Part shown: piece by piece, positions 10,819 to 60,498 of the stretch | Numbering within the stretch: position 1 is the first letter of the stretch | Layout of the letters: every line of letters begins with the position of its first letter | Source: Pseudomonadales bacterium | GTDB taxonomy: Bacteria; Patescibacteriota; Microgenomatia; UBA1400; PJMF01 | Length of the DNA stretch: 64,000 bases | Assembly (NCBI GenBank): GCA_020632235.1 | Contig: JACKFY010000003.1 | Location: 94,139-158,138, forward strand | Direction: 5' to 3' | Translations under genes and position numbers: made by a program | The notes under the pieces: model-generated | Seen by the model: the letters and a program-made list of their open reading frames with translations, nothing else | Told to the model about the DNA's origin: nothing | Databases searched by the model: none

Positions 10819-11136
10819 ATGAGCAACACTACGCATAGCAATGGGTTATTACAGGCAAAAGAGGCAGTGCTCCCTGTTTTACTTAACTACTTTAACCCCC
10901 ACACAACAACGATCTTTGTCTTTGGTTCTCAAGCGTTGGGAGTACAACACGACCGATCAGACATCGATGTAGGCTACACAACTTCTACCCCCCCCAGTGC
11001 TCTTCAAACAACAGAGATGAGAGAAAAACTTGATACGCTACCCTTTCTTATCGATCTTGTTGACTTTTCGACTGTTTCGGATGACTTTAAAAAAGTAGCT
11101 AAGGAAAGTCGCATTGTATGGCACCAAGCAAAATAA
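10819..11136 (+). CDS. Minimal nucleotidyltransferase (MNT, Pol-beta superfamily) antitoxin-type protein
   Basis: 'VFGSQALGVQHDRSDIDVGY' is the GSx9-13 SDxD signature. The ORF track starts at 10759, but M21 (10819) is the likely start. 19-nt overlap with the downstream HEPN gene. Confidence 0.7.
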   Translation: MSNTTHSNGLLQAKEAVLPVLLNYFNPHTTTIFVFGSQALGVQHDRSDIDVGYTTSTPPSALQTTEMREKLDTLPFLIDLVDFSTVSDDFKKVAKESRIVWHQAK

Positions 11137-11501
11137 CTATTTTGAGAGAAAGTTTGACCTGTGCAGTAGCGCAACTTGACGAACTTGCCACAGTAGCTAA
11201 TCCGAGTGATGTTGAGCGAGACGCCCTTATCCAGCGGTTTGAGTATACGTTTGAACTTGGTTGGAAGTACTTAAAAGCACTCCTTGCAGATCAGGGTGTG
11301 CTTGAACACTCTCCCGCAAAAGTAATAAAAGAATCATATAGGGTAGAACTTATTGATGATCTCGAGCTATGGCTCACCCTGCTTGAAAAGCGAAACTTGA
11401 CTGTTCATATGTATAGTCAAGAGATTGCAGAGTCAGTACTGCCGTTTTCTCCACCGCTTGTAACAGCAACTAGACAGCTATTACGATCAACTAATGAGTG
11501 A
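11118..11501 (+). CDS. HEPN-domain protein (nucleotidyltransferase substrate-binding, HI0074-like) toxin-type
   Basis: 127 aa, helical, with the Rx4H motif 'RNLTVH' near the C-terminus. Paired with the MNT gene. Confidence 0.7.
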   Translation: MAPSKITILRESLTCAVAQLDELATVANPSDVERDALIQRFEYTFELGWKYLKALLADQGVLEHSPAKVIKESYRVELIDDLELWLTLLEKRNLTVHMYSQEIAESVLPFSPPLVTATRQLLRSTNE

Positions 11502-32876: not shown

Positions 32877-34069
32877 GACTGATTTCCCATAGCATTGTAG
32901 AGCGCATCAAGTTTTTTGGAGATCTCTCCCCACTCAAAGTGCTGAGCCACATACAGTTTGCCAGTCGAGCTGAGCTTTTTTTGTAGTGAGCGATTTTGAA
33001 GCACTTTGACAGTTTGTTGTATCAGTTCTTCTGGTGATGAGCTCAACACAACGTGCGTGTCTGGGGTGACATCAATACCCTCAACAGCGGTTGGCGTAGC
33101 AACAATGGGTGTGCCAGCAGCCATCGCCTCCAGAATTTTGTATCGCGTTCCTTTACCACTCATAACAGGAGCAATTAGCACATTTGCTGTCGAAAATGCA
33201 TCACGAATATCATCAATCCTGCCTAACACCTTTACGTCTTTGAGTGCTTTGGCTTTTTCTATAATGTCTTGGGTTGGCTCATTTCCCACGATGTGTAGCT
33301 GTGCATTGGGTATCTGTGCTTTTACCCCGTTCCAAACAGCATCCAGTAGATAGTTGACCGCCTCAACGTTGGGCAACCACTTAAATGTGCCTACAAATAG
33401 CGCAGTTGGGGTTGGTGGTGGCTTCCAGGGTTTTTCTGCAAACCAAGCAGCATCGACACCATTCTCTACTACTTGAATGCCCTCTTTTTCTCCAAGAACC
33501 TGAGCAATGTACTCTTTATCTGCCTCGCTCATGGTTACGAGTACATCTGATTTTTTCCAAAAATGTTTTTCCCAGTGTTTAATTTTGGCTATATCAACCG
33601 CAAGAATGGGTTGTAGTAGGGGGTGGGCTCGCTCGGCATAGCTTTCGTACCCAAGGTACTCGATGGTTTGTTCAACAAGTAAAATAGGAGTGTCAGTCTG
33701 GGGAATGTGGGGCATCATGTAAAATGTCTCGGCGTGAATGAGGTCGTACTGGGTATAGGAAAGCTCTGCTTCAACAGCCTTAATTACCTCAGGTACATGA
33801 TTTCGAATGATCAAGAATGGATAACTAGAGACTGCAGTTTTGAGTACATTTTTAAGAGTAAATGGGCGTTGTGATCGCTTAAATACGCGAACTACCGAGC
33901 AAAATTCTTCAAGGTGGCTGATGTATTTTTTCTCGCTTTCATCTTTAATCAAAGCAAAAAGCGTAATGCTGTGGTGTTGGGAAAGCTTTTTGAGTAGGTT
34001 GTAGGTTCTAATTTGACCACCAGAAAGAAGCGGATACGGCAGGTAGGGGGTGAGCATCAAGATATTCAT
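32873..34069 (-). CDS. GT4 glycosyltransferase
   Basis: 'MNILMLTPYLPYPLLSGGQIRTYNL' N-terminus. GT-B C-terminal domain. Confidence 0.8.
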   Translation of the reverse strand: MNILMLTPYLPYPLLSGGQIRTYNLLKKLSQHHSITLFALIKDESEKKYISHLEEFCSVVRVFKRSQRPFTLKNVLKTAVSSYPFLIIRNHVPEVIKAVEAELSYTQYDLIHAETFYMMPHIPQTDTPILLVEQTIEYLGYESYAERAHPLLQPILAVDIAKIKHWEKHFWKKSDVLVTMSEADKEYIAQVLGEKEGIQVVENGVDAAWFAEKPWKPPPTPTALFVGTFKWLPNVEAVNYLLDAVWNGVKAQIPNAQLHIVGNEPTQDIIEKAKALKDVKVLGRIDDIRDAFSTANVLIAPVMSGKGTRYKILEAMAAGTPIVATPTAVEGIDVTPDTHVVLSSSPEELIQQTVKVLQNRSLQKKLSSTGKLYVAQHFEWGEISKKLDALYNAMGNQS

Positions 34070-35511
34070 TGTTTGGGTTTGGTTAAGTCGATAATGATGT
34101 ACTCCTGCGTTTTTTCGAGTACAAAGTAGCGCTCTTCTAGCTCGCGAGCCTCGTCATCATAGCTGGTAGAAACATAATGCGTCGCGCCTAGCTTTCTTTT
34201 TTGCTCTATTTCGTAGCCGATGGGCCAACCCACTCGCTTTGTCTGAAATAAAAATGACGTGTCGCCAAAGTTTGGCGCAATCACCTGAGCATTGGCTGGC
34301 ACAACTTGATCAACAACTGCCCCAGCCGTGTCATACTCCCAGTGGTTCACGTTAAAGTAACCTCTCACCTGCATGCCTGCCCCAACAAGCATTAAAAGAC
34401 TCAGGCTTATTGTTGCTGCTAGACTGAGTACATGTCTCGTTTGGGTAGAGATTTGATTGAAAGATGAAATAAATGAGTAGCATGCATAAATACCAAATGC
34501 TACGGTGATCGAGAGGATGGGTGTGAGGAGGACTTGATAGTAGTCATGCTGCACATTGCCGGTAGCAATAACAATGAGGTAGGCGAACATTCCTGCCCAC
34601 CAAGATCCATACACCAAGAGTTCTTTTTTATTTGCCACAAATGGTGCGAGCACTACAAACACTACCCCAACATATCCTAGCATTAGCTTGCTTATTCTTT
34701 CAAAAAATATCCAGCGAAACCAGGCTGGGCGCAGGCGAATACCATTGCCATTAAATAACCAGTCGCTGGCCGGAATACCTTCGGGAAACTGAGCAATCCA
34801 GCTGCGCCACCACCACAGTGGAAGAACTGCCAACAAAAATAACAGAGCAGGCCAGTAGGAGCGCCAATGCGTAGTGTGTTTGTGCACAAATAGCACCATG
34901 TAGACTGGAGCAAAAAACACAACAAACGGCTTGAGTAGCAGCGCTAGGGTAAATAGTACCGCTGAGTAAAAATAACCACTTGGCTTATTTTTCTCTACTG
35001 ACCAAACAAAACAGGCAAGTGAAGTGGTGATAGCAGCCAGCATGGCTGGTTCTGGTAATACGGTACGAGAGTAGTAGACGCTGTAGGGTAAAACCGCAAA
35101 CACCACTGCACTCAAGTACGCAATTTTTTTACCAGACAGCATCTTGACAACACCAAAGATGCTAACGAGAGTGACAAGCGAGCACAGCATCGAAAATAGG
35201 CGACTAGCAACCACGACATCAGACAGATGGAGGGTAGTTACGATAACCGCCAATACTCCATTGACAATAGGAAACTCTACCATACGGTAGCCTTCTGGAT
35301 TGTCTAAACCTGATGGGATGTTAGACAGATCGTGATAGGTAGGATGAAGTAGATCAATACCATGAAGGGTGTATTCTCTGGTGACCGAGGCGGTATCTGC
35401 CTGTCGCCAGCTATGCCAATCTAGAAGCGGATAAGAAACACGATATAAGCGCAGCATCAGCGCAAGCGCAATGATGCCGAGCAGCGGTGAGTATCTGAGA
35501 AGTATTTTCAT
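34066..35511 (-). CDS. Polytopic membrane protein, putative GT-C-type glycosyltransferase
   Basis: 481 aa with more than 10 TM helices and an N-terminal loop 'DWHSWRQADTASVTREY'. Family not resolved. Confidence 0.4.
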   Translation of the reverse strand: MKILLRYSPLLGIIALALMLRLYRVSYPLLDWHSWRQADTASVTREYTLHGIDLLHPTYHDLSNIPSGLDNPEGYRMVEFPIVNGVLAVIVTTLHLSDVVVASRLFSMLCSLVTLVSIFGVVKMLSGKKIAYLSAVVFAVLPYSVYYSRTVLPEPAMLAAITTSLACFVWSVEKNKPSGYFYSAVLFTLALLLKPFVVFFAPVYMVLFVHKHTTHWRSYWPALLFLLAVLPLWWWRSWIAQFPEGIPASDWLFNGNGIRLRPAWFRWIFFERISKLMLGYVGVVFVVLAPFVANKKELLVYGSWWAGMFAYLIVIATGNVQHDYYQVLLTPILSITVAFGIYACYSFISSFNQISTQTRHVLSLAATISLSLLMLVGAGMQVRGYFNVNHWEYDTAGAVVDQVVPANAQVIAPNFGDTSFLFQTKRVGWPIGYEIEQKRKLGATHYVSTSYDDEARELEERYFVLEKTQEYIIIDLTKPKQ

Positions 35512-45988: not shown

Positions 45989-46112
45989 AACCGTACAACA
46001 AAAGCAACTAGAGTTACTATCCTCCATATCTATACCTACGGAAACGTACCTTACCGGAGGTACAGCATTATCATTACAGATTGGCCTCTTATCCTTATTG
46101 AATGACTAATGA
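45969..46112 (+). pseudogene. 47-codon ORF resembling the N-terminus of an AbiEii/DUF1814-type nucleotidyltransferase; likely truncated remnant
   Basis: Manual translation gives 'MSQLFRETVQQKQLELLSSISIPTETYLTGGTALSLQIGLLSLLND*'. The 'LTGGTALSL' block resembles the conserved start of AbiEii-family proteins. It terminates exactly where the AT-rich island begins. Confidence 0.3.
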
Positions 46113-46194
46113 ATATATCAGGCTGAATAAAATTTTTCGCTCTTAGTACACCTATTATTGCTTCCTTTTTTTCAAGCTGTTAGAATGAGACAGA

Positions 46195-47124
46195 ATGAAG
46201 CCAAGTCTCATAGTTACTATCCCTGCTTACAATGAAGAAGCAACGCTACCCAGTGTAATCAAGAGCATCCCAAAAACACTAAAGGGTGTTGGAAAAATTG
46301 AAGTGCTTGTCTGGAGTGACGGCTCTACTGATAACACCATCAAAGCAGCTAAAAAAGCGGGTGCCACACATGTATTTGAGAATAAAAAAAATGTAGGGTT
46401 AGCAAAAACATTTGATAGAGCAACGAAAAAAGCAGTAGAGATTGGTGCAGACATTATTGTTAACACCGATGCAGATAACCAGTATGATCAATCTGAGATA
46501 CCGTTATTACTTCAACCTATTTTAGAGCAGGGAGCCGACATGGTAAATGGCGACCGCCAAGTAGAAAAACTGGAGCATATGCCATTGGCCAAGAAGTACG
46601 GTAACATGCTGGGGAGCTGGACAATACGCTGGCTGACGGGCGTTCACCTTAATGATGCTAGCAGTGGCTTTCGCGCGTATACAAAGGAGGCGATAGAAAG
46701 CTTTGATCTTCTTTCCTCCCACACCTATACTCATGAGACGATCATTCAAGCTGCGTTCAAAGACCTTCTCATTCATGAAGTGCCGGTTACGTTCAAAAAG
46801 CGACATGGCAGCGGCTCCAAACTGATCTCAAGCGTGTGGTCACACATCAAAAAATCGGGCGCGACGATTGTGCGCACCATCCTCATGTACCGGGCATTTA
46901 AGGTATTATCGATGATTGGCTTGACGCTGTGCTTGATTGGATGTCTGTTTATGCTGCGGTTTCTCTACTTTTATCTTACTGACGCCGGGAGTGGACACGT
47001 ACAGTCCCTCATTTTCGCCTCAGTATTGATCAGCATGGGGTTTAACACTATTATGTTGGGGGTGATTGCAGACCTTATTGCGGTGAATAGAAAGCTACTT
47101 GAAAAAAAAGTTAGTACAGAATGA
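46195..47124 (+). CDS. Polyprenyl-phosphate hexosyltransferase (GtrB/DPM1-like GT2)
   Basis: 'LIVTIPAYNEEATLPSVIKSIP...VLVWSDGSTDNT' and 'NTDADNQYD', plus two C-terminal TM helices typical of GtrB. Confidence 0.8.
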   Translation: MKPSLIVTIPAYNEEATLPSVIKSIPKTLKGVGKIEVLVWSDGSTDNTIKAAKKAGATHVFENKKNVGLAKTFDRATKKAVEIGADIIVNTDADNQYDQSEIPLLLQPILEQGADMVNGDRQVEKLEHMPLAKKYGNMLGSWTIRWLTGVHLNDASSGFRAYTKEAIESFDLLSSHTYTHETIIQAAFKDLLIHEVPVTFKKRHGSGSKLISSVWSHIKKSGATIVRTILMYRAFKVLSMIGLTLCLIGCLFMLRFLYFYLTDAGSGHVQSLIFASVLISMGFNTIMLGVIADLIAVNRKLLEKKVSTE

Positions 47125-48200
47125 AGAACGTTGCTCTAATTGGTCCCTCAAGCACACTTTTCAAAGGTGGAATTACACATTTTACAGAAGAACTATATAA
47201 TATTTTGAGTAAAAAAGATGATGTTGTTATAGATTTCATACCATTTACAAGAAACTATCCGCCTCTTTTATACAAAGGGTCACAGCCCAGCGGGAAAATA
47301 CAAAAAGGATGGGACTGGCTCAATCCTCTTTCATATATACAAGTAGCAAAAAGGATAAAGACACTTAACGCTGATATTGTAATTTTACAATGGTGGACTT
47401 TTTTTTGGGGTATTCCATACTTATTTCTATTATTAATTATGAAGCTCTTCAAAACAGATGTACAAAAGCATATTGTAATTCACAATGTCTATGACCATGA
47501 ATGCAGCGCTTTATCAAAGCTATTTTCAAAAATAGTCCTACCATTTTTCGACTTTATATATCGTGTATTACAGCAAGGAGAATATGACAAACTAGCAAAA
47601 TTGCTAAGAGATAAGTCAAAAATAAAACTACAACAAATGCCTGTATTCAATATGTTCAAAAAAAAACCACATAGCATTGTTTATAAAAAGAAATCAGCTG
47701 ATGAAAAAATTATGCTTTTTTTCGGACATGTAAGGCCATACAAAGGATTAGACTTACTTATTGAATCACTTTCAAAACTGAACAAAAATGATTTTGCATT
47801 TCATTTACTCGTTGCGGGAGAATTTTGGAATGATAAAGAAGCGTATATTAAACAAATAAAAAAATATAATCTAGAAGATTATATAACACTTTTTGATAAA
47901 TATATCCCTGATGATGAAGTTCCGAATTACTTCAATAGTGCTGATGCAGTAATTATGCCTTACAAAAAAGCTACCGGTACTGCAGTTTCTAAAGTTGCTC
48001 ACTTTTTTAACAAACCAATAATAGCCACACCCGTGGGTGATTTGGCTCAAAGCTCGCATTTTGTCGCAGAATCTACCAGTATCAATGATTTTGTTAAAGT
48101 ATTGAAAAGATTCTTTAAATATAAAAACATTAGACCAAATAAAAGCAAAATTAATAATACAACTTGGAAAATCTACACAAAGTCATTACTATCAATATAG
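47121..48200 (+). CDS. GT-B fold glycosyltransferase (GT4-like)
   Basis: 'FFGHVRPYKGLDLLIES...LLVAGEF...ADAVIMPYKKATGTAVSKVAHFFNKPIIATPVGDL' shows GT1/GT4 C-domain topology. Confidence 0.55.
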   Translation: MKNVALIGPSSTLFKGGITHFTEELYNILSKKDDVVIDFIPFTRNYPPLLYKGSQPSGKIQKGWDWLNPLSYIQVAKRIKTLNADIVILQWWTFFWGIPYLFLLLIMKLFKTDVQKHIVIHNVYDHECSALSKLFSKIVLPFFDFIYRVLQQGEYDKLAKLLRDKSKIKLQQMPVFNMFKKKPHSIVYKKKSADEKIMLFFGHVRPYKGLDLLIESLSKLNKNDFAFHLLVAGEFWNDKEAYIKQIKKYNLEDYITLFDKYIPDDEVPNYFNSADAVIMPYKKATGTAVSKVAHFFNKPIIATPVGDLAQSSHFVAESTSINDFVKVLKRFFKYKNIRPNKSKINNTTWKIYTKSLLSI

Positions 48201-48232
48201 TATAACCAAATAAAGATTTTCAAAATGTTAAT

Positions 48233-48964
48233 ATGAAAGGATATGGAATGAAAATTAAATACAGTGATAAAGATTTCAAAAGTTTTTACAAAAAAGACAA
48301 GCATGCTAAATCATATGATATTAAAAGGTCATCTACTCTAAAAAAAAGAATTGTCAGATCACTAGAGAGATACACCGCGACATTATTTCTACGCAAAGAC
48401 TCAAAGATAATTGAGGTTGGTGTGGGAACAGGCTTCATTACAGAACGCATCATAAAATACGGAACAGTATTTGGTATTGACACATCAAATGTGATGGTTC
48501 AAGAGCTGAAAAATAAGATTACAAACAACAGTCTATCATTAAAAAATATGTCATTATATGACAAACTACCTAGCAAGAAGTTTGATTACGCAATTTCATA
48601 TAGAGTTTTGATGCATTTAAATGAGAACAATATTATAAAAGGATTGAACAATCTGGAAAAGAGTCTAAAAGATTCAGGATTAGTTGTTGTTGATATACCT
48701 AGAAAATCATTGTTTAAAGACCTTGTTCAATTTCTAAAGAAAATATTTGTTCCTGGTGAAGAAGTACACAACTACACATACAATGAGTCTCAAATATATA
48801 GAATGGTGAATAAAACAGAAAATTTGAAAATTAAGACTCTATTAGCCATTGATCACGTGTGGCTATTTTTACCACTATATTTGGTATTCAACTCTTTCAA
48901 AGATAATGATTATCTTAAAAGACTAATATTAATGATTGAAAGGAAGCTAAATATATTTTTATAG
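48233..48964 (+). CDS. Class I SAM-dependent methyltransferase
   Basis: Motif I 'IIEVGVGTGFITERII'. Confidence 0.7.
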   Translation: MKGYGMKIKYSDKDFKSFYKKDKHAKSYDIKRSSTLKKRIVRSLERYTATLFLRKDSKIIEVGVGTGFITERIIKYGTVFGIDTSNVMVQELKNKITNNSLSLKNMSLYDKLPSKKFDYAISYRVLMHLNENNIIKGLNNLEKSLKDSGLVVVDIPRKSLFKDLVQFLKKIFVPGEEVHNYTYNESQIYRMVNKTENLKIKTLLAIDHVWLFLPLYLVFNSFKDNDYLKRLILMIERKLNIFL

Positions 48965-49392
48965 CTTCAGTACAAGATGGATAGTAATATGCGAGAAACA
49001 GTAGATCAAGAACTATACTTATTTCTTGGTATAGATCTTGTTAAGCCTTATGATGAAAAAATAGTCAAAATTGTTGAAAAAATAACAAAAGAACTATCAC
49101 TAAAAATAAGGAGTGGCAGATAATTAATCTGCAAAAGAATAAAAAAAAGAATAAACAATGATAAGATAGTAACTATAGATAAAACCGACAATGTTTTTAA
49201 TAAATTTACTTTGCTAATAAAACTTATATATAGTATTGTAAAAATACGCTTCAAAAGCCCTCAAAAAAAAATCAATATTAATATAATTTGGTCGGGATTC
49301 AGAGTTGCAGAGTTGCTAATATGGGTTGTTTGTAAGTTGTTGAGTATTAAGATCACTTATACAGTTGTGACACGAAAACAAACGGGTCATTT

Positions 49393-50067
49393 TTGAATAT
49401 TTATAACGCAATAATATTTTTATCACAAGATCTTTATCTGAGTTGGAGAGGCAAAGATAGTTTAAAAAATTTTAGAATTATTCATCCTACACCTGAATTA
49501 GAAACAAAAGTAACAAAAAAGGGTAAATACATTCTTTTTGTAACAGTTCCTATTTTTGAAAAAAACTTTAAGAAAAGAGGAGTAGAAAACTTTTTTAGAC
49601 TTGCAGGGTATCTTAATAAAAACAGTGATTATAAGTTGCTTGTACTAAATCGATGGGTTGAAGGCGCGCACATCTTAGAGGAATTCAAACTAAAATATTC
49701 ATGTTACAATACTAAAATTTTAAGCAAATATGAGAAAAATATTTCACAATTCTATAGAAATGCCCTTGTATTGATAAACTTAGATGAAGGTTCAGATACA
49801 CCCCAGTTTCCCCTTAGCGTAGCTGAAGCTATTGCTTGTAGTTGCCCTATTGTAGCAGTAAGTGACAAATGGCTGATAAATAAAGTTCATAGTGCTATGG
49901 CGGGAATAATATCTAATAATTCTGTTGACGAGTTGGTAAGCGCAATAGATAAAATTAGCACTAGCATTTTAGATTACAAAAATAATGCTCATGAACTGTC
50001 AAAGCAATTATTTTCAACAACAATGCATAGTAAATACTCTGACTACTTAATAGAAATCAATAAGTGA
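49393..50067 (+). CDS. GT1-family C-terminal-domain-like protein (possibly truncated glycosyltransferase)
   Basis: 'NALVLINLDEGSDTPQFPLSVAEAIACSCPIVAVSDKW' resembles a GT-B C-domain. Only 224 aa. Upstream 48965-49392 is an AT-rich non-coding-looking stretch. Confidence 0.4.
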   Translation: MNIYNAIIFLSQDLYLSWRGKDSLKNFRIIHPTPELETKVTKKGKYILFVTVPIFEKNFKKRGVENFFRLAGYLNKNSDYKLLVLNRWVEGAHILEEFKLKYSCYNTKILSKYEKNISQFYRNALVLINLDEGSDTPQFPLSVAEAIACSCPIVAVSDKWLINKVHSAMAGIISNNSVDELVSAIDKISTSILDYKNNAHELSKQLFSTTMHSKYSDYLIEINK

Positions 50068-50942
50068 TGTCTACATATAAAATAATTTACCAATTAGTTA
50101 AAAGAATGCTTCTGATTATTTCTTTAGTATTGGTTATGTTGTTCTTAATGAATAACCCATCACTAGTTTCAGACATAGTATATAAAATTGGATTTTTTAA
50201 CTCTTTACTCATTATAGTTGTATTAATGATTAACGTTGCAATTTCATACTATAGAATTCAGCTTATCTTAAAACTTTTGAATTGTAATATTAGTACAAAT
50301 TTACTATTAAGAGAGTACTCAAAATCAATTATAATGAGATACTTGCCTGGAGGCATATGGGATCACGCTTCTCTAGTTGCTTCGCTGAAAGAATACACAA
50401 AGTCATCATTTAAAACACTTTCACTGGTTCCAACGTTGAATGTTATTTCCTTGATAATAATTGGAGTTTTTTCTTTCTTTTACTTTTACATCTCACTAAT
50501 GAAGTTATCATTTATCATCGGAACCATTGTATTATTGATTATTACGCTTATTTATTTTAATTTCTACAATTTGAAAAAGATTATTTATGGTAGGAGATTG
50601 TTTATGAATCAGTTAATTTTTTTATTCACACTAACTATTATTCAACTAGCTACTGTAGGTTTTGCATTTTTCATATGTATGAATGCAGTTGTAAAAGCTG
50701 AGTTTAGTATGAATTTACACTGGCTTGATGTAACAAACGCATTTATAGCATCATGGGTGGCGGGAGTACTAGCTATTCCATTTCCAAGTGGTATTGGGGT
50801 TAGAGAGTTTGTGATTACTCATTTACTTAGTAGTACATCACTACCAACGAAATACATTGTAATGGTTTCATTAGTCTTTAGAGTATATATTATAATAAGA
50901 GATATTGCTTTTTTCTTTTTTTCACGAATTTTTTATAAATAA
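50064..50942 (+). CDS. Polytopic membrane protein (possibly flippase-like / LPG-synthase-TM-like)
   Basis: 292 aa with about 8 TM helices and a 'RYLPGGIWD' loop. 4-nt overlap with the previous gene. Confidence 0.4.
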   Translation: MMSTYKIIYQLVKRMLLIISLVLVMLFLMNNPSLVSDIVYKIGFFNSLLIIVVLMINVAISYYRIQLILKLLNCNISTNLLLREYSKSIIMRYLPGGIWDHASLVASLKEYTKSSFKTLSLVPTLNVISLIIIGVFSFFYFYISLMKLSFIIGTIVLLIITLIYFNFYNLKKIIYGRRLFMNQLIFLFTLTIIQLATVGFAFFICMNAVVKAEFSMNLHWLDVTNAFIASWVAGVLAIPFPSGIGVREFVITHLLSSTSLPTKYIVMVSLVFRVYIIIRDIAFFFFSRIFYK

Positions 50943-50975
50943 GAAACCTATCAAATTATCTATAGTTAGCACTTA

Positions 50976-51533
50976 TCAAAACGCTTTACCCAACTCTAAC
51001 TGCCTTTTTGTCCACTCCGCCTTAATATTTTGACGCACAGGTCTTTGCACTCTCACTCTGTTCTCCCCTAGTCTTTGCAAAGATCTACCCGGATATCTAA
51101 AACGAGTGCCTCGAAGCGCTCTGTTTACCACCCTCACAAAACTGCTCATTTTTGCAAGCACTCTATCTGAGCGTGTGTCATCCAGTGAGTAACCAAGTGC
51201 TAGCATGAAGTTGACTTTTTCTTCCAGTGTGGAGAAGACAATAACGCCAGCTATATCTGCAATAGCTTTCTGCACCTCTTTTTTACTCATGTCTGGGAAT
51301 ATATTTTCTGAGGCAACAGTATACTTATCTGCGACTCTGGTCTTTTCTTCTGCCAATAGGAGTACAATAATTGAGATGAGAAAATCATCTGCTTGTGAAT
51401 ATAAAACAATCTCTTCTTGCTGCGCAGCGCCTCCCATAACTTCGGGGGTTATGCCTTCATCAAAGTACTCACTGCTGCGTGGGTCTTGTTGCCAGGCTTC
51501 TCGGATTTTTTGTGCTAGTTCGTAATTGTGCAT
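50976..51533 (-). CDS. Hypothetical protein
   Basis: 185-aa ORF, more GC-rich than its neighbours, with a basic C-terminus. No motifs. Confidence 0.35.
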   Translation of the reverse strand: MHNYELAQKIREAWQQDPRSSEYFDEGITPEVMGGAAQQEEIVLYSQADDFLISIIVLLLAEEKTRVADKYTVASENIFPDMSKKEVQKAIADIAGVIVFSTLEEKVNFMLALGYSLDDTRSDRVLAKMSSFVRVVNRALRGTRFRYPGRSLQRLGENRVRVQRPVRQNIKAEWTKRQLELGKAF

Positions 51534-51544
51534 AAGTAATACAA

Positions 51545-52102
51545 TTAATAATTTTTATTGATTATATCAAACAGTATTTCCATAGTATTATCAGCATATA
51601 CTCTATAGATAGGCTCATCATTCTCATTCAGATACGCGCTCTCTGTGTTGAAGCTCGCCCCATCTAAAGAATACATTTGCCAGCAGAGGTGTATATTTTC
51701 TCTCTGGTATGTTTTTGGAATATCTACACCATTAAAAAAGTTTTCTTGTAAATGATCTGCCTCAAATATTTTTGTTATTTTTTTATCACCATTCTTTTCA
51801 AAAAAATCAACACTTATAGTATTGGTATTATCTCTTTGATACGTTGCAAACTGCCATTCAATATGTGTTGGTATATAGTCTGTTGCTACAAAACAATCTG
51901 TAACAATGGTATTACCCAAGAGGGCGTTGCTCACAGAGCGCTCACCATAATTTCTGGTCGAGTACTCTGGTAGAGCATATACATCGCCAGATATAAGAAC
52001 GTATACTAGCGTGCAAAAAATACCAAAAATAGCCATCAATTCTATATATTTTTTCATTAGAAGTAGATCCAAACTACTATCTCTCGTATAAATATGCGCC
52101 AC
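51545..52102 (-). CDS. Hypothetical exported protein
   Basis: N-terminal TM/signal 'MAIFGIFCTLVYVLISG'. Confidence 0.35.
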   Translation of the reverse strand: MAHIYTRDSSLDLLLMKKYIELMAIFGIFCTLVYVLISGDVYALPEYSTRNYGERSVSNALLGNTIVTDCFVATDYIPTHIEWQFATYQRDNTNTISVDFFEKNGDKKITKIFEADHLQENFFNGVDIPKTYQRENIHLCWQMYSLDGASFNTESAYLNENDEPIYRVYADNTMEILFDIINKNY

Positions 52103-53511
52103 TCAATAAGAAAAAGTACTACCATACTAGCAAGCATAGCTACATTTTTATACTGTAGTTTCTGTAGGATACTATTATAACCGATCGCCATAGCTGTAAA
52201 AATAGGAATGCTAGAGTAAAGATAATACCTTCCCGACAATGCCCTTATCCAGCCGTCCCAGAAAAATGCAGACATATAATTTTTATAGATCAATATTGAA
52301 AACAACAGTAGAAAAGGAATGAAATACACCCAGTATCTTTTATTTTTAAGCAGTGCGGGTATCGCTGCTATGAGAAGTAATCCGTACGTTCCCATAAAAA
52401 TAAAAAGAATATCTCTTCGTAGTGGTTTTTGACCCCAGCCAAAGACACCGATATAGTTGCGCACCCATTGATAGCCGAGATTTAACCCGTTGGGACTGAA
52501 AACAACCTTCACTCCCTGCCAAGTATATGGCTCATAATCAAAATCATCATACGTCATTTGATGTCGATCTTGTACGATCTCTCCAGCCTCGCCAATTTCT
52601 GCTTTACTAATATCTGCGCTCACCAAATCGCCCGTAACAACGTAGTTTTGTGCGTAGTACCACCCGCCAATGAGCAGACTACTAACGGTATATAACAATA
52701 CGGCAGTGATGAGCTTTCGGTCCAGCAACTTTTTGCCATGAGACATGAGTAATTTGACAAGAACGAGCGGCATCATAAATACAGCAAACAACTTTGTGCA
52801 AAGTGCCAATCCCGTTACTACTGAGAGCTGTATGACTGTGCGTAAGTTATATGTGTTAGTTTTGGCTACAAGATAAAATAGTAATCCGCACAAGAGTGTC
52901 AACAAAATATCATTTGAGGCGTACCCTGCGGCATGAAAAAAAGTAGGCCAACTGCCAAACAAAATGATTGCGATGAGTGATGTTGTGTGGTTTTTAGTTA
53001 CTTCTTTTGCAAATCGATATATGACATAGAGCGTGGCTGTGGCTATAAATGCATTGATAATGCGCAGCATACATACAATTTGGAGTGATGAAGCGCTATC
53101 CCTAAAAATGGCATACACTGGCGTCATGAGGGCGTAGTACAGGGTGGATGCTGCACGATCCAGTTTCTACTCCCCCTCTTCTGTCGCAGTTGCTGAAACC
53201 ATCCAATCTGCATCTTCTTGCAAAAACTCTCGTGCATAATTAAGATTCATCTGCCTCAAGTTTGTAGAACCAGGAGCAATCAATGTGGGGTTTGGTTTTG
53301 TTGTGTGCACATACAGCCTTTCTTTTCTGCGTTCTAGCGACTCAATGTAACCGATGTGCCTCGTCTCGTCTGGCCCCATCCACGGTGGAGTAACAAGAAT
53401 ATATAATAGTACTTTCAAAAAAAACAATAGCAGCACAATAGCTACTTGTACTCTGTGCTTTTGAAAAAAAGCTTTGCTATTAGATAGATAGTGTGAAGTC
53501 TTCTTTTTCAT
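52057..53511 (-). pseudogene. GT-C-type (PMT_2/ArnT-like) membrane glycosyltransferase interrupted by a single in-frame TAG
   Basis: The N-terminal fragment 53511..53167 has a TM helix plus a 'PPWMGPDETRH' loop. The C-terminal fragment 53127..52057 is polytopic and includes 'GLALCTKLFAVFMMPLVL'. The two are in the same frame, separated only by TAG (53169-53167) and 13 sense codons. Confidence 0.45.
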
Positions 53512-55423
53512 GGGTTAGATTGATATTATAATACGGATCTCTACTTACTATATTACCCCATTTTGCCATAAAAATTTGCTGTTCAGCATATAGTTGAGAC
53601 TGATCTCTTGTTGCGTTTTCAGATTTCGGGATAGACTCTCCTTCTTTGTGTATGAGTTGGGCATGAGGGGTGAACACATTTCTGGTACCAATCTTTTCAG
53701 TAAGTCTGAGACAAAAATCTACATCGTTATATGCTATGGCAAGCTTTTCGTTAAATCCATTTACTTTTTCAAACTTCGTCTTTTTTACCATTAAACATGC
53801 TGCCGTTACAAACGAATAATTTTTGACGGATAAAGTATCTACGGTAACAAATCCATTTTTTGGCTTCGTTTTGTGCGCGTGTCCCGCTATTTTTATAGCA
53901 TCATCATATCCTATACCCAAAACTCCTCCATAGTGCTGAATGGTGTAATCAGGATAAAAAAGGGCGGCGCCCACAGCCCCAATTTCTTTTCTTTGGGCGT
54001 GTTGCAGCATTTTTTCAATCCAGTCTCTACTAATTATTTCTGTATCATTATTTAAAAAAAGTAGGTACTCCCCCGTTGCTTTTGCAGCACCATAATTATT
54101 GGCAGCAGAATAGTTAAATGCTTTACTCCATGTGTATGCTTTGAGTGGTAGTTTCTTTTTATATTGTGTATATACTTCACTAGTGTTGGTACTCGTACTG
54201 CCCGTATCAATGACAACAACTTCATAGTTTTGATATCTTGTTTTTTGGATAGATCTCAGGCACGCGCGCATAAGATTGGCTTTATCTTTATTGAGGATGA
54301 TAATGCTCACCTTTGGTTTGTTCATTACTGCATACTGCATGCTCCATACACCTAAGTATTTTGTATTTTTTACACGTCCTTTTACACCTCTTCTCTGAAG
54401 GTCATCCCGCAGCACTATTTCTTGGTTGACATAGGCATATGGTTTTACTTTGCCACTACTCTTTTCTGACGCAGTTGAAGTTTCAGATTTTCGCCAGCTG
54501 TATAGTATCGTTGGAATGTGGTGTATATACTGTGAAGTTTTATATGCATTTTTTTTATTGTTTAGTATTATTGAATCTTTTTTATTTATTTCTGTAGTTG
54601 CTCGCAAAAATAAATCCCAATCCTGTGCCCCCTCTGTTCCTAGTCGAAAACCGCCAACTTTCTCTACCAAGCTTTTGCGAAGCGTGGCAAAGTGAGTAAT
54701 GTAGTTGATTGACCTGAGATAATCGGGGCTCCAGTCTGGCTTAAAAAAAGGATCAATATGGTCTCTGCCATTTTCGGCAATTTTATCTTCATCGGTATAG
54801 ATAAAATCTATTTTTTTATTATCATTGAGTGCAGCAACAACTTCATATAACGCATTGGGCCATAACACATCATCATGATCCATGAGCGATACAAACCTTC
54901 CCGTTGCCAATGATAGTGCGTCATTTGAGGCATTGCAGATATGACCATTTTCTGTGCGAAAGATGCTTTTAATTCTTTTATCCTGGCTTTGATATTCGAG
55001 AATGATGTCACGTACTTTTTGATCTGGAGAGTTATCATCTACTATACACAGTTCCCAGTTTTCATATGACTGATCAATCACAGAGTTAATGCACGCGCGC
55101 AAAAATGTTCCTTTTGTATTATATGTTGGAAGTAAGATTGAAATAAGAGGCTGATATTCAAGGGTGGTTATATGCTGTCTTTGTGCATTAAGTGTTTTTT
55201 TGTCTGGATAGTATTTTTTTACCCATCGTTTGTATTGTTTATTGACGTAATCATTGTGGTTTAGCTGATACCAGTGTTCAGTTATTTTGTCGATAACAGC
55301 AGTAATACCACCTCTTTTATACAATGCACATGCCTTATCAACTTTAGTTTTATTGGTTATATGCTCTATTGAGTAGCGAAAAAACTCTTTTGTGAAGTGG
55401 AAGTATCTAACAACAATCATCAT
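53480..55423 (-). CDS. Tandem-GT2 (two GT-A domains) glycosyltransferase
   Basis: First domain 'ISILLPTYNTKGTFLRACINSVIDQSYENWELCIVDDNSPD'. Second domain 'VSIIILNKDKANLMRACLRSIQKTRYQNYEVVVIDTGST'. Confidence 0.8.
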   Translation of the reverse strand: MMIVVRYFHFTKEFFRYSIEHITNKTKVDKACALYKRGGITAVIDKITEHWYQLNHNDYVNKQYKRWVKKYYPDKKTLNAQRQHITTLEYQPLISILLPTYNTKGTFLRACINSVIDQSYENWELCIVDDNSPDQKVRDIILEYQSQDKRIKSIFRTENGHICNASNDALSLATGRFVSLMDHDDVLWPNALYEVVAALNDNKKIDFIYTDEDKIAENGRDHIDPFFKPDWSPDYLRSINYITHFATLRKSLVEKVGGFRLGTEGAQDWDLFLRATTEINKKDSIILNNKKNAYKTSQYIHHIPTILYSWRKSETSTASEKSSGKVKPYAYVNQEIVLRDDLQRRGVKGRVKNTKYLGVWSMQYAVMNKPKVSIIILNKDKANLMRACLRSIQKTRYQNYEVVVIDTGSTSTNTSEVYTQYKKKLPLKAYTWSKAFNYSAANNYGAAKATGEYLLFLNNDTEIISRDWIEKMLQHAQRKEIGAVGAALFYPDYTIQHYGGVLGIGYDDAIKIAGHAHKTKPKNGFVTVDTLSVKNYSFVTAACLMVKKTKFEKVNGFNEKLAIAYNDVDFCLRLTEKIGTRNVFTPHAQLIHKEGESIPKSENATRDQSQLYAEQQIFMAKWGNIVSRDPYYNINLTHEKEDFTLSI

Positions 55424-56964
55424 ATTTTGGGTGGTTTGTAAACAAATAGGTTTTTTATTTCATCTGTATTCTTATTTTTGAAAAGCTCTATGACTTTTTT
55501 ACGACTTATATTTTTATGAATATGGAGAGTTTTTACCATAGATTGCCACAGAATAAAAAACCTTGAGTGATAGATGTTGTTTAGTTCTTTGTTTCTTGTC
55601 TTTATTACAGCTTCTTGTTCACTAATTTTTTTCTGGTAATTATCAACCATCTTACTAAACTTAATTTTTTCCTCCCTAAATAACGCATGGTTGATGGAGT
55701 GTATTTTTTGCAAAATCTGATTGTATCCAAACGTCGTACTAAGGGTTTTTTCTCTAAACACACCATTGTTAATTTTAAAAGTAGTCAATTGTGAAGTAAA
55801 ATTATTTGACAATGCGCCCTCAACAGGAGACTGATTGATAAGAAAAAGACTCTCATTTATTTTAGAGTCGTGATTGTAATCACCTATGTGAAGATGTGCG
55901 CACTCATCTGCATTGAAAACCGCCATACTCTTTGGGTGTAGCGCCATGACCTCAGCATCATCATGCTTTTCATTTAGGAGTGTTGGAATTATATTTTTGA
56001 GTGAAAATGGTTTGTCATTAAAAGACTTAGTTTGGTCAGGAGAAATTATCATTAGTGGAACATGCACTAATGATGGACGGCAGTATATCCCGTGAGCAAA
56101 AAAGATGTTGTCTTCCCCCAACAGCTCACCATGGTCGCTGGTAATAGCAATTTTTGATCTTTTTGCTATTCCCATATTTATAATATTTTTTACAAAAATA
56201 TTTATTTGCTTGTCCATTTCATAAATGCCTTGGTCGTATTGCGCAACATAATAATTAACATCTTGCTCAAAATCATCACCAAACTCATTAAATGCTATCT
56301 GATATTTAGGAGCAACAGAAAAATTCTGTAATACAGCATCATCTATGCCAGTAAAAGCATCGTTGACAATTTTATCGATTTTTCTTGTATCTTTTTTAAA
56401 GATTTTATCATCTCGAAATCTACTTTTTTTATTTTTTGTGTAAGGGCCATGCGCCTCCATTAAATGGAAGCACAAAAATAATTTTTTTTGTTTATTTTTC
56501 TCTATATACTTGGCGCCTGCATCCAATATCTCACTACTTGGCGCATATAGTGCATTAAAACGGCCTGTTTCTTTTTGTGATAGTTCATCCCAAAAGTGAT
56601 CAAAAAAATCAGAAAGGTTTGTGTGAGACCTCGATGTTACAAAGTTTCCTGTAAAGAAAGCAGTTGTATAGCCACGCTCTTTTAATAAATCTAGGTTAGG
56701 GAAGTCTTTGGTAGTAAATTTTTTATTTTGGTCAAAAAATGGAGTCATCTCTGTGGGATACTTTCCACCAAGTATTGAGGGAACAGAGGCAAATGTATAA
56801 GAACTAGGTGAAATAGCACGTTGGTATACCGTTCCATTTTTACTGAGTTTATCTATACACGATGTTGTTTGTCGATCATAACCATAAAGACTCATGTGGT
56901 CTTTTCGAACAGCATCAAGGATAAATAAAAAGATATACTGAGGGTGAGAATCCATGTCTACCAA
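55420..56964 (-). CDS. Sulfatase-like / alkaline-phosphatase-superfamily hydrolase or transferase
   Basis: N-terminal 'IFLFILDAVRKDHMSLYGYDRQTT...AISPSSYTFASVPSILGG' matches the sulfatase N-domain layout. A Ser sits at the Cys/Ser-x-P-x-R position. Confidence 0.55.
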   Translation of the reverse strand: MVDMDSHPQYIFLFILDAVRKDHMSLYGYDRQTTSCIDKLSKNGTVYQRAISPSSYTFASVPSILGGKYPTEMTPFFDQNKKFTTKDFPNLDLLKERGYTTAFFTGNFVTSRSHTNLSDFFDHFWDELSQKETGRFNALYAPSSEILDAGAKYIEKNKQKKLFLCFHLMEAHGPYTKNKKSRFRDDKIFKKDTRKIDKIVNDAFTGIDDAVLQNFSVAPKYQIAFNEFGDDFEQDVNYYVAQYDQGIYEMDKQINIFVKNIINMGIAKRSKIAITSDHGELLGEDNIFFAHGIYCRPSLVHVPLMIISPDQTKSFNDKPFSLKNIIPTLLNEKHDDAEVMALHPKSMAVFNADECAHLHIGDYNHDSKINESLFLINQSPVEGALSNNFTSQLTTFKINNGVFREKTLSTTFGYNQILQKIHSINHALFREEKIKFSKMVDNYQKKISEQEAVIKTRNKELNNIYHSRFFILWQSMVKTLHIHKNISRKKVIELFKNKNTDEIKNLFVYKPPKI

Positions 56965-57632
56965 TATCCTAACTTCCTCAACTTCTCCATCTTATCTTCT
57001 TTTGTTGCTTCTCTACCTGCTCGCTCAGAAGCATGTGGGTCTGCAACGGGGTGAGTAAACGGCGCTTCACCCAGAGATTTATACCCTTTGTCATACAGAT
57101 CAACATACGGCACATCATATTTTTTTATGTACTCCCAAATATCATCTATCGTAAATTGAAGTATGGGGTGCACTCTACTGTGGCTTCTTCTCTTCGAGAT
57201 GACTGTTTCTTTTGATCGTGCTTCATGTTCGTCCCAGCGTATGCCAGAAACAAACACCCTGATGTCATATTCACTGATCGCGTAGTTGATAGCGTTGATT
57301 TTTGCTATGCGCATGATCTCCATTTTTTCCTCATCGTTGGTAGATGCGTTGTATGATTGCAGATCTTCAGGCAAGTGCTTCAGCCAAATCAAATCTACAC
57401 TCCAATCTTTTTTTATTTTTTTGATGAAAGTGTATATTTCTGGAAACTCAATAGTTGAGTCATTAAAAAGTACACGAAACGGTATTTCGCCGTACATTTC
57501 TTTGATAATATGCATGATAACGGTGGAGTCTTTGCCGCCTGTCCATGCAACCACAATTTCTTCGTCCTTCCATTGCTGGCGTGCGCTTTCTATACCATCT
57601 TGCGCTTGTTTAATTTTTTGTTTGAGTGACAT
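56958..57632 (-). CDS. PAPS-reductase-family (phosphoadenosine phosphosulfate reductase-like) protein
   Basis: 'IVVAWTGGKDSTVIMHIIKEMYG' PP-loop (SGGKDS-like) of the PAPS_reduct family. 224 aa. Confidence 0.7.
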   Translation of the reverse strand: MSLKQKIKQAQDGIESARQQWKDEEIVVAWTGGKDSTVIMHIIKEMYGEIPFRVLFNDSTIEFPEIYTFIKKIKKDWSVDLIWLKHLPEDLQSYNASTNDEEKMEIMRIAKINAINYAISEYDIRVFVSGIRWDEHEARSKETVISKRRSHSRVHPILQFTIDDIWEYIKKYDVPYVDLYDKGYKSLGEAPFTHPVADPHASERAGREATKEDKMEKLRKLGYW

Positions 57633-57670
57633 ACTTCCTTAATTCTAACGAACTACATTTTCTTTTGACA

Positions 57671-58399
57671 TTACCCAAAATACTTTGCTACTACTTTTTT
57701 TGCCCCTCCACTATCTTTCACCTCTCCCCCTTCCAGCCACAATGCATGCTCTGTATGCTCACGAATTAAATCAGGTGAGTGACTAACTACTACTATAGTA
57801 ACCTTATTTTTTTTCATTTCTTCTATTCTTGTGACACACTTTCTCTGAAACTCATGATCCCCCACTGCCAAAATCTCATCAATCAGCAAAATTTCTGGAT
57901 CTGTGTGAATAGCCACCGCAAAAGCGAGCCTGAGGTACATGCCACTACTGTAATGCTTGATAGGCTGGTCTATAAATTCCCATAGCTCTGCAAAATCAAC
58001 AATAGTTTTAAATTTTTTCTCTATCTCTGCCCTAGTCATCCCTAAGATCACCCCATTGAGAAAAACGTTTTCTCTGCCCGTGAGTTCTGGATGAAACCCA
58101 GCACCCAACTCAATAAGGGGCGCAATTCTGCCAGTGACAGAAATACTTCCCGAGGTGGGCTGGGTTACACCAGCTATTAACTTTAAAAGTGTTGACTTAC
58201 CTGATCCGTTAGGGCCAATAATACCAATGCTTTCACCTTTTTTAACTTCTAGATCAATATTTTTGACTGCCCAAAATGTTTCATGAGTTTTGTTTCTACC
58301 CAAAAGAGCTGGTATAAACTCTTTGAGCGTGCGCTGATGTTGCTTGTAATAGAGCTTTGAGACGTTCTGGATGGTGATGGCGGAGGCTAATTTGTTCAT
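57671..58399 (-). CDS. ABC transporter ATP-binding protein (Wzt/TagH-type polysaccharide exporter)
   Basis: Walker A 'IGIIGPNGSGKSTLLKLIAG', signature 'YSSGMYLRLAFA', Walker B 'LLIDEILAVGD'. Confidence 0.85.
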   Translation of the reverse strand: MNKLASAITIQNVSKLYYKQHQRTLKEFIPALLGRNKTHETFWAVKNIDLEVKKGESIGIIGPNGSGKSTLLKLIAGVTQPTSGSISVTGRIAPLIELGAGFHPELTGRENVFLNGVILGMTRAEIEKKFKTIVDFAELWEFIDQPIKHYSSGMYLRLAFAVAIHTDPEILLIDEILAVGDHEFQRKCVTRIEEMKKNKVTIVVVSHSPDLIREHTEHALWLEGGEVKDSGGAKKVVAKYFG

Positions 58400-59622
58400 G
58401 CTTTATTTGTTTCTGTAACATAGGATGCCACTGCAGAGCCAACGTCCCAAGGAAAAATCACCTTCTGCAAATGGAGTGGATTATCGCCTACCACCGCCCA
58501 GTCGCTTACTCCAGCAGCCTGTGCGCGTTTTTTTGTTGCATCTAGATTGTGAGTAGAAACAGTTTGTTTTACCTCTAGTCCTAAAGAACCCTCAACAATA
58601 AAATCAATTTCTTGACCAGATCGTGTTTGGTAGTAGGTAAGTTGATGCTTTCTTATATTCATAAACACTGCATTTTCAAGTAATTGACCAGCAGAAATAC
58701 TAGAAGAAACAGCCTGGGCAAAACCAACATCTTCAAAATATACCTTATCGAAAGAAGAAACCTGGTTATCAATGCTTGATTTTTGTGACAGCAGAGATAT
58801 AGCATATGTTTGCGTGAGACACTCAAGATACTCATATATCTGCTCTCTTCGTAACTTCATAACACTTGAGAGCGTTTGGACATTAACCCGCTGCCCAATG
58901 CGCTGTGTTAATAACCTAAGTAAGTTGTAGAGGTGGGTGGTATCAGCAAAGTCGGCAAATGTTACTACATCAATCTGAAAGTATGAGGTAACAATATCTT
59001 CAAGTAGTTTCTGTTTTACTTCACTATTATCTTGTAATACAACCTCTGGAAACCCTCCGTATTGGGTATACTCACGAAATAGCGAAGACGGGAGTGAATC
59101 TGCTGGTAATAGCGCGCTATGATCTTGATACTCTTGCCAGGAAAGATTATTTTGCAGCACCTTCTCTCCTTTAAATCGGCAAAACTCTTGAAATGATAAA
59201 GGGTGGAGCTCAAACAGTAGTTTTCGACCAGCCAAGCTCTGATTAAAGTGATTTTTTATGTAGTAGCTACTTGATCCCGTCACAATAAATTTTATATGAT
59301 AGGTGTCATAGAGATATTTAATGACAGAAGGAGCATTCTTGACAAATTGCAGTTCATCTATAAGCACATATGATGGGCGAGAAACGTCTAAACCTCTACT
59401 TTCAAGGCTGACTCGCACCGTTTCATAGTTGCTTGATTCCCAAATCAAACGCTCTTGCAGGTTTTCAAAATCGATAAATACTTTGTTTTTCGTTTGTATG
59501 TAATCAAGTAACTGTAACAACACAGTGGTTTTTCCTACTCGGCGCATACCTGTAACCACTAATACTTGTGGTATCTCAATGTACTCTAGTAAGGTGTGGT
59601 ACATGTCTCTGTGTATTTGCAT
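58396..59622 (-). CDS. AAA+ ATPase with DUF4143 C-terminal domain
   Basis: 'VLVVTGMRRVGKTTVLLQL' Walker A, 'YVLIDELQ' Walker B, then a DUF4143-type C-terminus. 4-nt overlap with wzt. Confidence 0.65.
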   Translation of the reverse strand: MQIHRDMYHTLLEYIEIPQVLVVTGMRRVGKTTVLLQLLDYIQTKNKVFIDFENLQERLIWESSNYETVRVSLESRGLDVSRPSYVLIDELQFVKNAPSVIKYLYDTYHIKFIVTGSSSYYIKNHFNQSLAGRKLLFELHPLSFQEFCRFKGEKVLQNNLSWQEYQDHSALLPADSLPSSLFREYTQYGGFPEVVLQDNSEVKQKLLEDIVTSYFQIDVVTFADFADTTHLYNLLRLLTQRIGQRVNVQTLSSVMKLRREQIYEYLECLTQTYAISLLSQKSSIDNQVSSFDKVYFEDVGFAQAVSSSISAGQLLENAVFMNIRKHQLTYYQTRSGQEIDFIVEGSLGLEVKQTVSTHNLDATKKRAQAAGVSDWAVVGDNPLHLQKVIFPWDVGSAVASYVTETNKA

Positions 59623-59718
59623 ATCGTGCTATTTTAGCATAAAAAATGTAATTTGTCCATTCTTTCCTACAAATACCCTGCACATTTGTAGTATTTTTCC
59701 GACAAAGTAGCGGGGTTA

Positions 59719-60498
59719 CTACACAACATCGGCAAACACTCCTTCCAATTTTTTAAAAAACCAGTAGCCAAGCATTAAAACACTGGTAGAAACCACTGCC
59801 GCAATGCCCAGACTCATGTAGTTTGGCTCTCCGGCCGCCAAGATCACCTGGCGATAGGCGTTGATAAAAACCGCCATTGGGTTGATCTGGAATATCCAGC
59901 GGTACCGATCAGGAAACATCTCGGTGGGGTAGATGACGGGCGTTAGGTACATCCAGACTATAAGACCAAGTCCCAACACATACTGAATGTCTCGATACAA
60001 AAGATTGGCTGCTGCTAAAAACAATGAAAGACCATAGGTAAATATGAGTTGTATGCCAAAGATAGGCACCACCCACACAATGTGCCAGGAAAGAGAGATG
60101 TGATAGTAGATAAGAAACACGACCAACACCGAGAGGGCGAGAAAGAGATCAACCACTTTGGCCAAGATAGCACTCAAAACAAATACTTCTCGGGGAAAGT
60201 AGATCTTAGTGATCAAACCCGCGTTCGCGACCAAACTACCTGTTGCACCGGCAAGTGCGCCGGAAAAAAAATTCCAGGGCAACAACCCAACATACAAAAA
60301 AACAGCATACGGCACGCCAAGGCTTTCAACACGAAGAATCTTGGAAAATACAAATGCCATGACCAGCATCTGAATCAGTGGATTAAGAATCACCCAGGCA
60401 TACCCAAGGATCGACTGCTTGTAGCGTTGTTTGATCTCGCGCCAAGTCAGCTCTGAGAGTAACTCGCGGTAGGTGGTGAAAAGAGAGAAAAATTGCAT
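59719..60498 (-). CDS. ABC-2 type transporter permease (Wzm/TagG-type)
   Basis: 259 aa with 6 TM helices and an ABC2_membrane-like pattern. Upstream partner of the Wzt ATPase. Confidence 0.75.
   Translation of the reverse strand: MQFFSLFTTYRELLSELTWREIKQRYKQSILGYAWVILNPLIQMLVMAFVFSKILRVESLGVPYAVFLYVGLLPWNFFSGALAGATGSLVANAGLITKIYFPREVFVLSAILAKVVDLFLALSVLVVFLIYYHISLSWHIVWVVPIFGIQLIFTYGLSLFLAAANLLYRDIQYVLGLGLIVWMYLTPVIYPTEMFPDRYRWIFQINPMAVFINAYRQVILAAGEPNYMSLGIAAVVSTSVLMLGYWFFKKLEGVFADVV

Follow-up and report, generated by a model that had tools for sequence, protein, structure and literature searches.

Two open reading frames (ORFs) on the minus strand of the window, by which we mean the whole 64,000-nt stretch of DNA analysed, together resemble one membrane glycosyltransferase, yet the deposited record separates them by a TAG codon, which raises the question of whether this locus (52057..53511) holds an inactivated gene, a recoded gene, two genes or an error. 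The N-terminal ORF runs from an ATG at 53511 to a TAG at 53169-53167 (114 aa), from where 13 sense codons, KLDRAASTLYYAL, lead to an ATG at 53127; the second ORF, in a frame equal to that of the first, extends from this ATG to a TAA at 52059-52057 (356 aa). These coordinates agree in every particular with those of the initial annotation. With the TAG included, the combined ORF has a length of 484 codons, matching the gene as we delimit it (484 codons plus stop), and the ATG called as the first codon of the 356-aa product (53125..53127) corresponds to an internal residue, Met129, of the full protein.

The 114-aa and 356-aa ORFs are a single gene encoding a GT-C glycosyltransferase, a claim made initially from the sequence that is now borne out by matches to the PMT_2 and PMT profiles, by a GT-C fold and by homologues that span the junction. 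The shorter piece opens with a Lys/Arg-rich segment and then has a hydrophobic helix at residues 22–40 (TM1) and a loop, PPWMGPDETRH, whose PDETRH element (53356..53373, minus strand) lies in the first loop after TM1. In an alignment of 20 homologues D48 and H52 are invariant and P47 and E49 are conserved at 90% or more, upholding the earlier recognition of this element as a D-E loop. A search of 5.8 billion proteins had only two hits, the 356-aa piece and a homologue of 470 aa, P0002; 98% of the length of P0002 aligns to the fused translation, with 47% BLASTP identity. The arrangement of the two ORFs is not a product of chance, because P0002 aligns without a gap over the junction and a 484-aa protein covers both parts.

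An exhaustive HMMER search identified 2,351 relatives, of which just two pass E<1e-30, P0002 (51% identical to the repaired protein) and P0003 (36%); the subfamily is thus small and rare, having two other clusters at this threshold among 1.84 billion representatives. Scanning GTDB species genomes for relatives gave 31 pattern matches, none of which was confirmed, and a metagenome scan recovered distant relatives only, at 25% identity (L003-L005), which were left out of the comparisons below. These homologues bear on whether the locus could consist of two separate, genuine genes, one for a small membrane protein and one for an N-terminally short GT39-like protein, as the public annotation would have it by listing MCB9802186.1 (114 aa) and MCB9802185.1 (356 aa) as two proteins. 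All homologues with at least 36% identity, however, are single proteins of 458–484 aa that cover both parts, the 356-aa piece alone has neither TM1 nor the D-E loop nor the QHPP motif, and no orthologues were found in which this position is occupied by two genes translated separately, so that we regard a two-gene locus as extremely improbable.

The gene is broken by paired compensating 1-nt indels and not by a nonsense substitution. Reading along the minus strand, the frame is lost at a G5 run (53172..53176), which is G4 in 3/3 independent contigs and hence has one G extra, and is regained at a C3 run (53142..53144), which is C4 in the same 3/3 contigs and has one C missing. The indels are of opposite sign (+1 G and −1 C) and 31 nt apart, leaving the spanned 31 nt out of frame; the two ORFs look in frame because the frame returns at the C-run after this shifted stretch. 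Three-frame translation of the junction gives GE*KLDRAAST in frame 0 of the window and GSRNWIVQHPP in the +1 frame (53142..53174), while P0002 reads GSSNWIVQHPP at the matching ungapped position. The TAG at 53167..53169 exists in the shifted frame only, and in the true frame its letters fall within AGT AGA (Ser-Arg). A point nonsense mutation was rejected on the same grounds: the codons past the TAG (KLDRAAST) are unlike the homologue, and the +1 frame fits it.

The +1 stretch carries the near-invariant QHPP of the QHPPLYY motif and is where the PMT_2 profile starts. Across the 20-sequence alignment Q120, H121, P122, P123, Y125 and Y126 are invariant or conserved at 90% or more, and the strongest motif of the family is therefore encoded, in the window, by the 'wrong' frame. 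With one G deleted and one C inserted, the ORF is open over 484 codons and the PMT_2 score rises from 29.7 to 39.0 bits, with the start of the match moving to profile position 1. The original description of the locus as split by one in-frame amber codon consequently gives way to a +1 G / −1 C lesion, the stop itself being absent from three independent assemblies. We also considered whether the paired indels arose from a quasi-palindrome or by template switching and rejected this, as we found no repeat or inverted repeat linking the two sites.

Direct support for this repair comes from public read sets. When proteins were clustered at 90%, the 114-aa and 356-aa products shared a cluster with a longer protein, P0152 (484 aa, from Logan), which is identical to the repaired translation that had been predicted from the 47%-identical homologue. 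P0152 is encoded on three independently assembled contigs, L006 (SRR12358676), L007 (SRR12358675) and L008 (SRR28385528). Comparison of L006 with positions 57896-51492 of the window (6,405 nt) revealed three differences only, namely the extra G, the missing C and a change at 54311 (minus strand), where the window has AAAGG and the three contigs have AAAAG, which is synonymous and affects Lys371 of the neighbouring GT2 gene. At all three sites L006, L007 and L008 are unanimous against the window; from 51476 on, L008 diverges abruptly as a strain variant. Exact-product look-ups of the broken ORFs as they stand in the window (P0001, the 224-aa ORF and the 359-aa ORF) returned no record.

Production of the full protein by recoding, either through readthrough of the TAG (suppressor tRNA or reassignment) or through programmed +1 and −1 frameshifts, is effectively excluded, and we assign it a negligible probability. 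The shared frame of the two ORFs, with no further stop between them, would suit readthrough, but its product would read GE?KLDRAAST and lose the near-invariant NWIVQHPP. Judged from the sequence, GGG-G would permit perfect +1 re-pairing of the Gly tRNA; it has, however, no adjacent stimulatory stop or rare codon, A-CCC-T, where the frame returns, is no slippery site, and the sequence around the frameshift showed neither a repeat nor a hairpin of note. P0002 and the near-identical alleles have neither stop nor shift at the site, meaning that nothing is conserved there, and similar indels strike neighbouring genes at unrelated positions. Stop usage among 53 genes of the window (TAA 23, TGA 20, TAG 10) agrees with the initial opinion that genome-wide recoding is unlikely, TAG terminating 10 of the 53, and a tRNA scan of the 64,000-nt window, which could have revealed a suppressor, detected no tRNA genes.

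Profile matches and a structural model identify the 484-aa protein as a GT-C enzyme of the PMT_2 type; the polytopic GT-C fold has an N-terminal membrane module of several helices that STT3, ArnT, PMT, ALG and Emb have in common. The repaired protein matches PMT_2 (PF13231) at 39.0 bits against a cut-off of 26.1, over profile positions 1–148 of 160, and PMT (PF02366) at 26.8 bits against 22.7, over profile positions 84–233 only; in the deposited form PMT_2 scores 29.7–32 bits and the match begins at profile position 24, the 356-aa piece alone giving 32.0 bits from position 24 for PMT_2 and 26.6 bits from position 84 for PMT, internal starts that suit a domain shorn of its N-terminus. No MIR or PMT_4TMC domain was matched at E<=1. 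An AF2 model of the 484-aa protein (pLDDT 81.6, pTM 0.86) is almost wholly helical, and in a Foldseek comparison with the PDB 19/19 matches at E<=1e-3 were GT-C enzymes (TM 0.37–0.51), including yeast and human STT3, ArnT (5ezm), AglB, Pmt4 and ALG12; AftA, PglB and Pmt1/2 followed at E values from 1e-3 to 4e-3. A profile of the family run against PDB sequences likewise matched Pmt1, Pmt2 and ArnT.

The name used in the public annotation, a GT39 protein O-mannosyltransferase, is not borne out for a protein of 484 aa with a partial PF02366 match and neither MIR nor 4TMC domain, and GT83 ArnT was rejected, the PRK13279 equivalog scoring 20.7 bits against a cut-off of 567. In the topology that we propose, the N-terminus would be cytoplasmic and followed by TM1, an outward loop with PDETRH and, at the start of TM2, QHPPLYY. 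By analogy with PMT, ArnT and STT3, D48 and E49 in loop 1 may be catalytic or metal-binding acids, and the protein would be expected to transfer a sugar from a polyprenyl-phosphate carrier to a surface glycan or protein on the outer face of the membrane. Once repaired, the gene is an ordinary PMT_2-type GT-C glycosyltransferase of a rare subfamily.

The gene belongs to a surface-glycan cluster of a Patescibacteria (CPR) genome. Upstream lies a gene for a two-domain GT2 glycosyltransferase of 647 aa (53480..55423, minus strand), and downstream lies a gene for a 170-aa protein with no family assigned (51548..52057, minus strand), its ATG and the stop of the GT-C gene overlapping as TAATG. The distant homologue's locus keeps the adjacency of GT2 and GT-C and the order GT2, GT-C and two successive genes for proteins of about 180 aa, with a gene comparable in size to that of the 170-aa protein at the corresponding place. 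Other genes of this low-GC island encode a Wzm/Wzt-like ABC-2 exporter, PAPS-reductase-like and sulfatase-family proteins, GT1 and GT2 glycosyltransferases, a methyltransferase and an LPG_synthase_TM protein. Among the closest species-representative genomes, all of them Patescibacteria/CPR, AspRS of the window is 67–72% identical to that of WWE3 and Patescibacteria group entries and 59% identical to that of Dojkabacteria. The window therefore comes from a CPR bacterium, and the cluster is not to be taken for a Gram-negative O-antigen locus. We also observed that proteins identical to those of the window occur under two record names, 'Pseudomonadales bacterium' as well as 'Candidatus Woesebacteria bacterium', and that several records in the CPR group of AspRS relatives are labelled Pseudomonadales or Gammaproteobacteria.

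The pattern seen in the GT-C gene extends across the island. Contigs L009-L011 (from SRR12358676 and SRR12358675), compared with positions 47061-51110 of the window, differ by eight further indel events of 1–2 nt (at 47555, 47563-4, 47568, 47576, 48949, 49101, 49141 and 49389) and three substitutions. Nearly all of these indels fall in A, T or G runs or in a GT repeat (A5/A6, A8/A7, T5/T6, AAA/AA, TTT/TT, GG/GGG and GTGT/GT), and two assemblies concur at each site. A GT1 gene that is intact at 359 aa in the contigs (P0166) is broken in the window, by a frameshift and an in-frame stop, into pieces of 48 + 61 + 224 aa; the methyltransferase has 243 aa in the window and 251 aa in the contigs; and another GT1 has 359 aa compared with 358 aa, with a local scrambled stretch. 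Three or more of the adjacent gene calls in the deposited record are thus very probably wrong through run-length errors like those in the GT-C gene.

The stretch bearing the indels is the low-GC part at 47.0–54.4 kb of the window. Between 47061 and 64000, 14/14 differences fall within 47061-54311, which has 33.8% GC, and none in the next 9.7 kb (binomial p = 7e-6). Outside the island, one indel was found in about 41 kb compared. Among contigs from the read sets used above, L012 is 100.000% identical to the window over 6,134 nt (0 substitutions, 0 indels), L093 is 99.988% identical over 16,294 nt (2 substitutions, 0 indels) and L095 differs over 14,651 nt by 4 substitutions and that single indel, T4 versus T5 at 7297, in a further patch of low GC. 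A general frameshift problem is absent where the GC content of the window is higher. The other split-gene candidates that we checked (10759/11118, 17699/17991/18893, 13552/14543 and 41059/42188) proved to be ordinary separate genes, comprising an MNT/HEPN pair, rsmH, mraZ, CofD, a Mur ligase and two GT4.

From these sequence comparisons, the split by the TAG very probably reflects errors of homopolymer length in the consensus of the deposited metagenome-assembled genome (MAG). Differences from the other assemblies are run-length changes and one run-boundary substitution, private to one assembly, and two to three independent assemblies, otherwise identical to the window, contradict the lesions. 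The origin would be an incompletely polished assembly, presumably of long reads, with run-length errors concentrated in the low-GC island; in the GT-C gene, the extra G and the missing C would together cause 31 nt to be misread, creating a TAG by chance and with it two gene calls. Of the three possibilities raised initially, sequencing error is now favoured, readthrough or suppression falls away with the loss of NWIVQHPP from its product, and an inactivated gene remains as a less likely rival.

According to this rival, which we consider unlikely, the lesions are real: the surface-glycan cluster of the sequenced strain was inactivated recently and is decaying, and other strains that share its habitat still have the cluster intact. 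The GT-C gene, the GT1 gene and the end of the methyltransferase gene would have been hit by slippage indels at short runs, for instance after selection was lost or as an escape from a phage or host. Run-length indels are the commonest natural frameshift mutations. The lesions are limited to a single glycan island of low GC, probably acquired by horizontal transfer and variable between strains; Logan contigs break there repeatedly and L008 diverges abruptly from 51476 on, indicating that the island varies in nature. Three further points weigh against errors: G5 and C3 are shorter than the runs usually miscalled, opposite-sign errors 31 nt apart would be an unusual coincidence if independent, and decay of a glycan cluster in a real strain would likewise produce clustered lesions confined to the island.

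Against real decay stands the composition of the differences, with indels outnumbering substitutions 10:4 in the island, compared with 1:49 for real strain divergence at the locus (L008 versus window 51054-51476; Fisher p = 7e-8). The affected genes carry no other damage, and the read sets that are 100.000% and 99.988% identical to the window outside the island hold intact alleles only. Two independent indels in a gene of 1.45 kb would be expected with a probability of about 2%, as a rough estimate. Moreover, the second indel in the GT-C gene regains the frame after 31 nt yet cannot rescue function, and selection does not explain the pairing, because the shifted stretch contains a stop. The change from AAAAG to AAAGG at 54311 is length-neutral, at a run boundary, and probably more typical of base-calling than of mutation.

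We accordingly see little chance that G5 and C3 are real and that a CPR strain silenced its glycan cluster by a burst of slippage indels with co-occurring strains left intact. Such lesions would offer a snapshot of an episymbiotic lineage in which a glycan of the cell surface was lost very recently or varies between on and off, and documenting so recent an inactivation in a CPR bacterium would be of modest interest. Under the favoured reading, that of assembly errors, the locus is a caution that two run-length errors which offset each other can leave behind a stop with the appearance of readthrough or of a newly formed pseudogene.

Comparison with known systems places the protein among PMT/ArnT/STT3-type GT-C enzymes, with which it shares about twelve TM helices and a conserved Asp-Glu pair in the first loop beyond TM1. 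PDETRH probably parallels the D-E motif of PMT loop 1. Eukaryotic PMTs exceed 700 aa, whereas the protein described here has 484 aa and neither MIR nor another large soluble domain.

The lesion, in turn, invites comparison with glycosyltransferases of surface glycans that vary in phase by slipped-strand mispairing, in which a 1-nt change in a G-run likewise switches off the gene. The tracts in those systems, however, are usually at least 7 nt long, compared with 4–5 nt here, and, unlike in them, the gene carries a second, compensating indel and its neighbours are struck at A and T runs too. In nanopore-based MAGs, homopolymer indels that fragment gene calls are a documented residual error unless short-read polishing succeeds (PMC9262707). 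The island resembles such long-read MAGs in its ±1 run changes and run-boundary substitution, its several split or truncated genes, which independent assemblies of short contigs have intact, and the clustering of the differences in AT-rich sequence, and differs from them in that the runs affected in the GT-C gene are short, measuring 4 nt in the intact allele.

The glycan cluster lies in a low-GC island at window positions 46000–60000, where GC content is 29–40% compared with 46–50% elsewhere. Because this island carries PAPS-reductase-like and sulfatase-family genes, our data suggest that its glycan is sulfated or modified in some other way. An AAA_14/DUF4143 ATPase gene (59622–58396) intervenes between the ABC-2 permease (60498–59719) and ABC ATPase (58399–57671) genes.

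By comparing the window with Logan contigs from independent runs, we observed a second interrupted glycosyltransferase gene in the island, of the GT1 family (48977–50067, + strand), in which one in-frame stop and one frameshift leave three fragments (48, 61 and 224 aa). Contigs from runs SRR12358675/6 encode an intact 359-aa version (P0166), and differ from the window in three run lengths within the gene (window versus contigs: A5 versus A6 at 49101, A8 versus A7 at 49141 and T5 versus T6 at 49389). Only the 224-aa piece is retained in public annotation, as the hypothetical protein MCB9802181.1. Neighbouring genes are also affected: an extra A at 48949 (+) alters the C-terminus of a methyltransferase (243 aa in the window, 251 aa in other assemblies), and four indel events plus one substitution inside 22 nt (47555–47576, +) scramble a few residues of another GT1 protein (47121–48200; 359 aa in the window versus 358). 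Outside the island, a single indel was found in ~41 kb compared, namely a T absent from a T-run at 7297 (T4 versus T5 in contig L095), which shortens a Peptidase_S51 protein (ORF 6652–7344, +) from 239 to 230 aa and sits in a separate low-GC patch (36.6% GC).

Contig L008 (run SRR28385528) is identical to the window over ~4 kb except at the three sites private to the window. Its BLAST match to the window stops at 51054, and L008 4002–4425 diverges suddenly from window 51054–51476 (−), with 50 differences across ~420 nt; the change falls within the second of the small unknown genes (50976–51533). This divergence point looks like a recombination breakpoint or a strain-variable edge of the glycan island.

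The split GT-C gene has further PMT_2-type paralogues, one of 481 aa (34066–35511, −) in a second glycan cluster at about 25–43 kb, which also carries Bac_transf, DUF4012, GT4 and GT2 genes, and one of 528 aa just past the right end of the window (contig L012, 1475–3061); within a ~75-kb stretch, this small CPR genome therefore carries at least three GT-C genes. The split gene's product belongs, with its homologues P0002 and P0003, to a subfamily marked by PPWxGPDETRH...NWIVQHPPLYY and a C-terminal WIYF. This subfamily is very rare: of 1.84 billion representatives searched, only two other 50%-identity clusters score at E<1e-30. The source of P0002 is the Logan runs SRR8925715/6, where flanking gene order is the same as at the window locus.

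The record name 'Pseudomonadales bacterium' looks wrong. Proteins identical to those of the window are present in the 'Candidatus Woesebacteria' MAG GCA_020429115.1, and the nearest species genomes by AspRS (9321–10730) are Patescibacteria/CPR, including WWE3 and Dojkabacteria, several of which also bear Pseudomonadales or Gammaproteobacteria labels.

Lastly, overlapping genes at 10759–11501 (+) encode a nucleotidyltransferase (Polbeta/NTP_transf_2) and an NTase_sub_bind (HEPN-like) protein, a pair that looks like an MNT-HEPN toxin-antitoxin module rather than a split gene.
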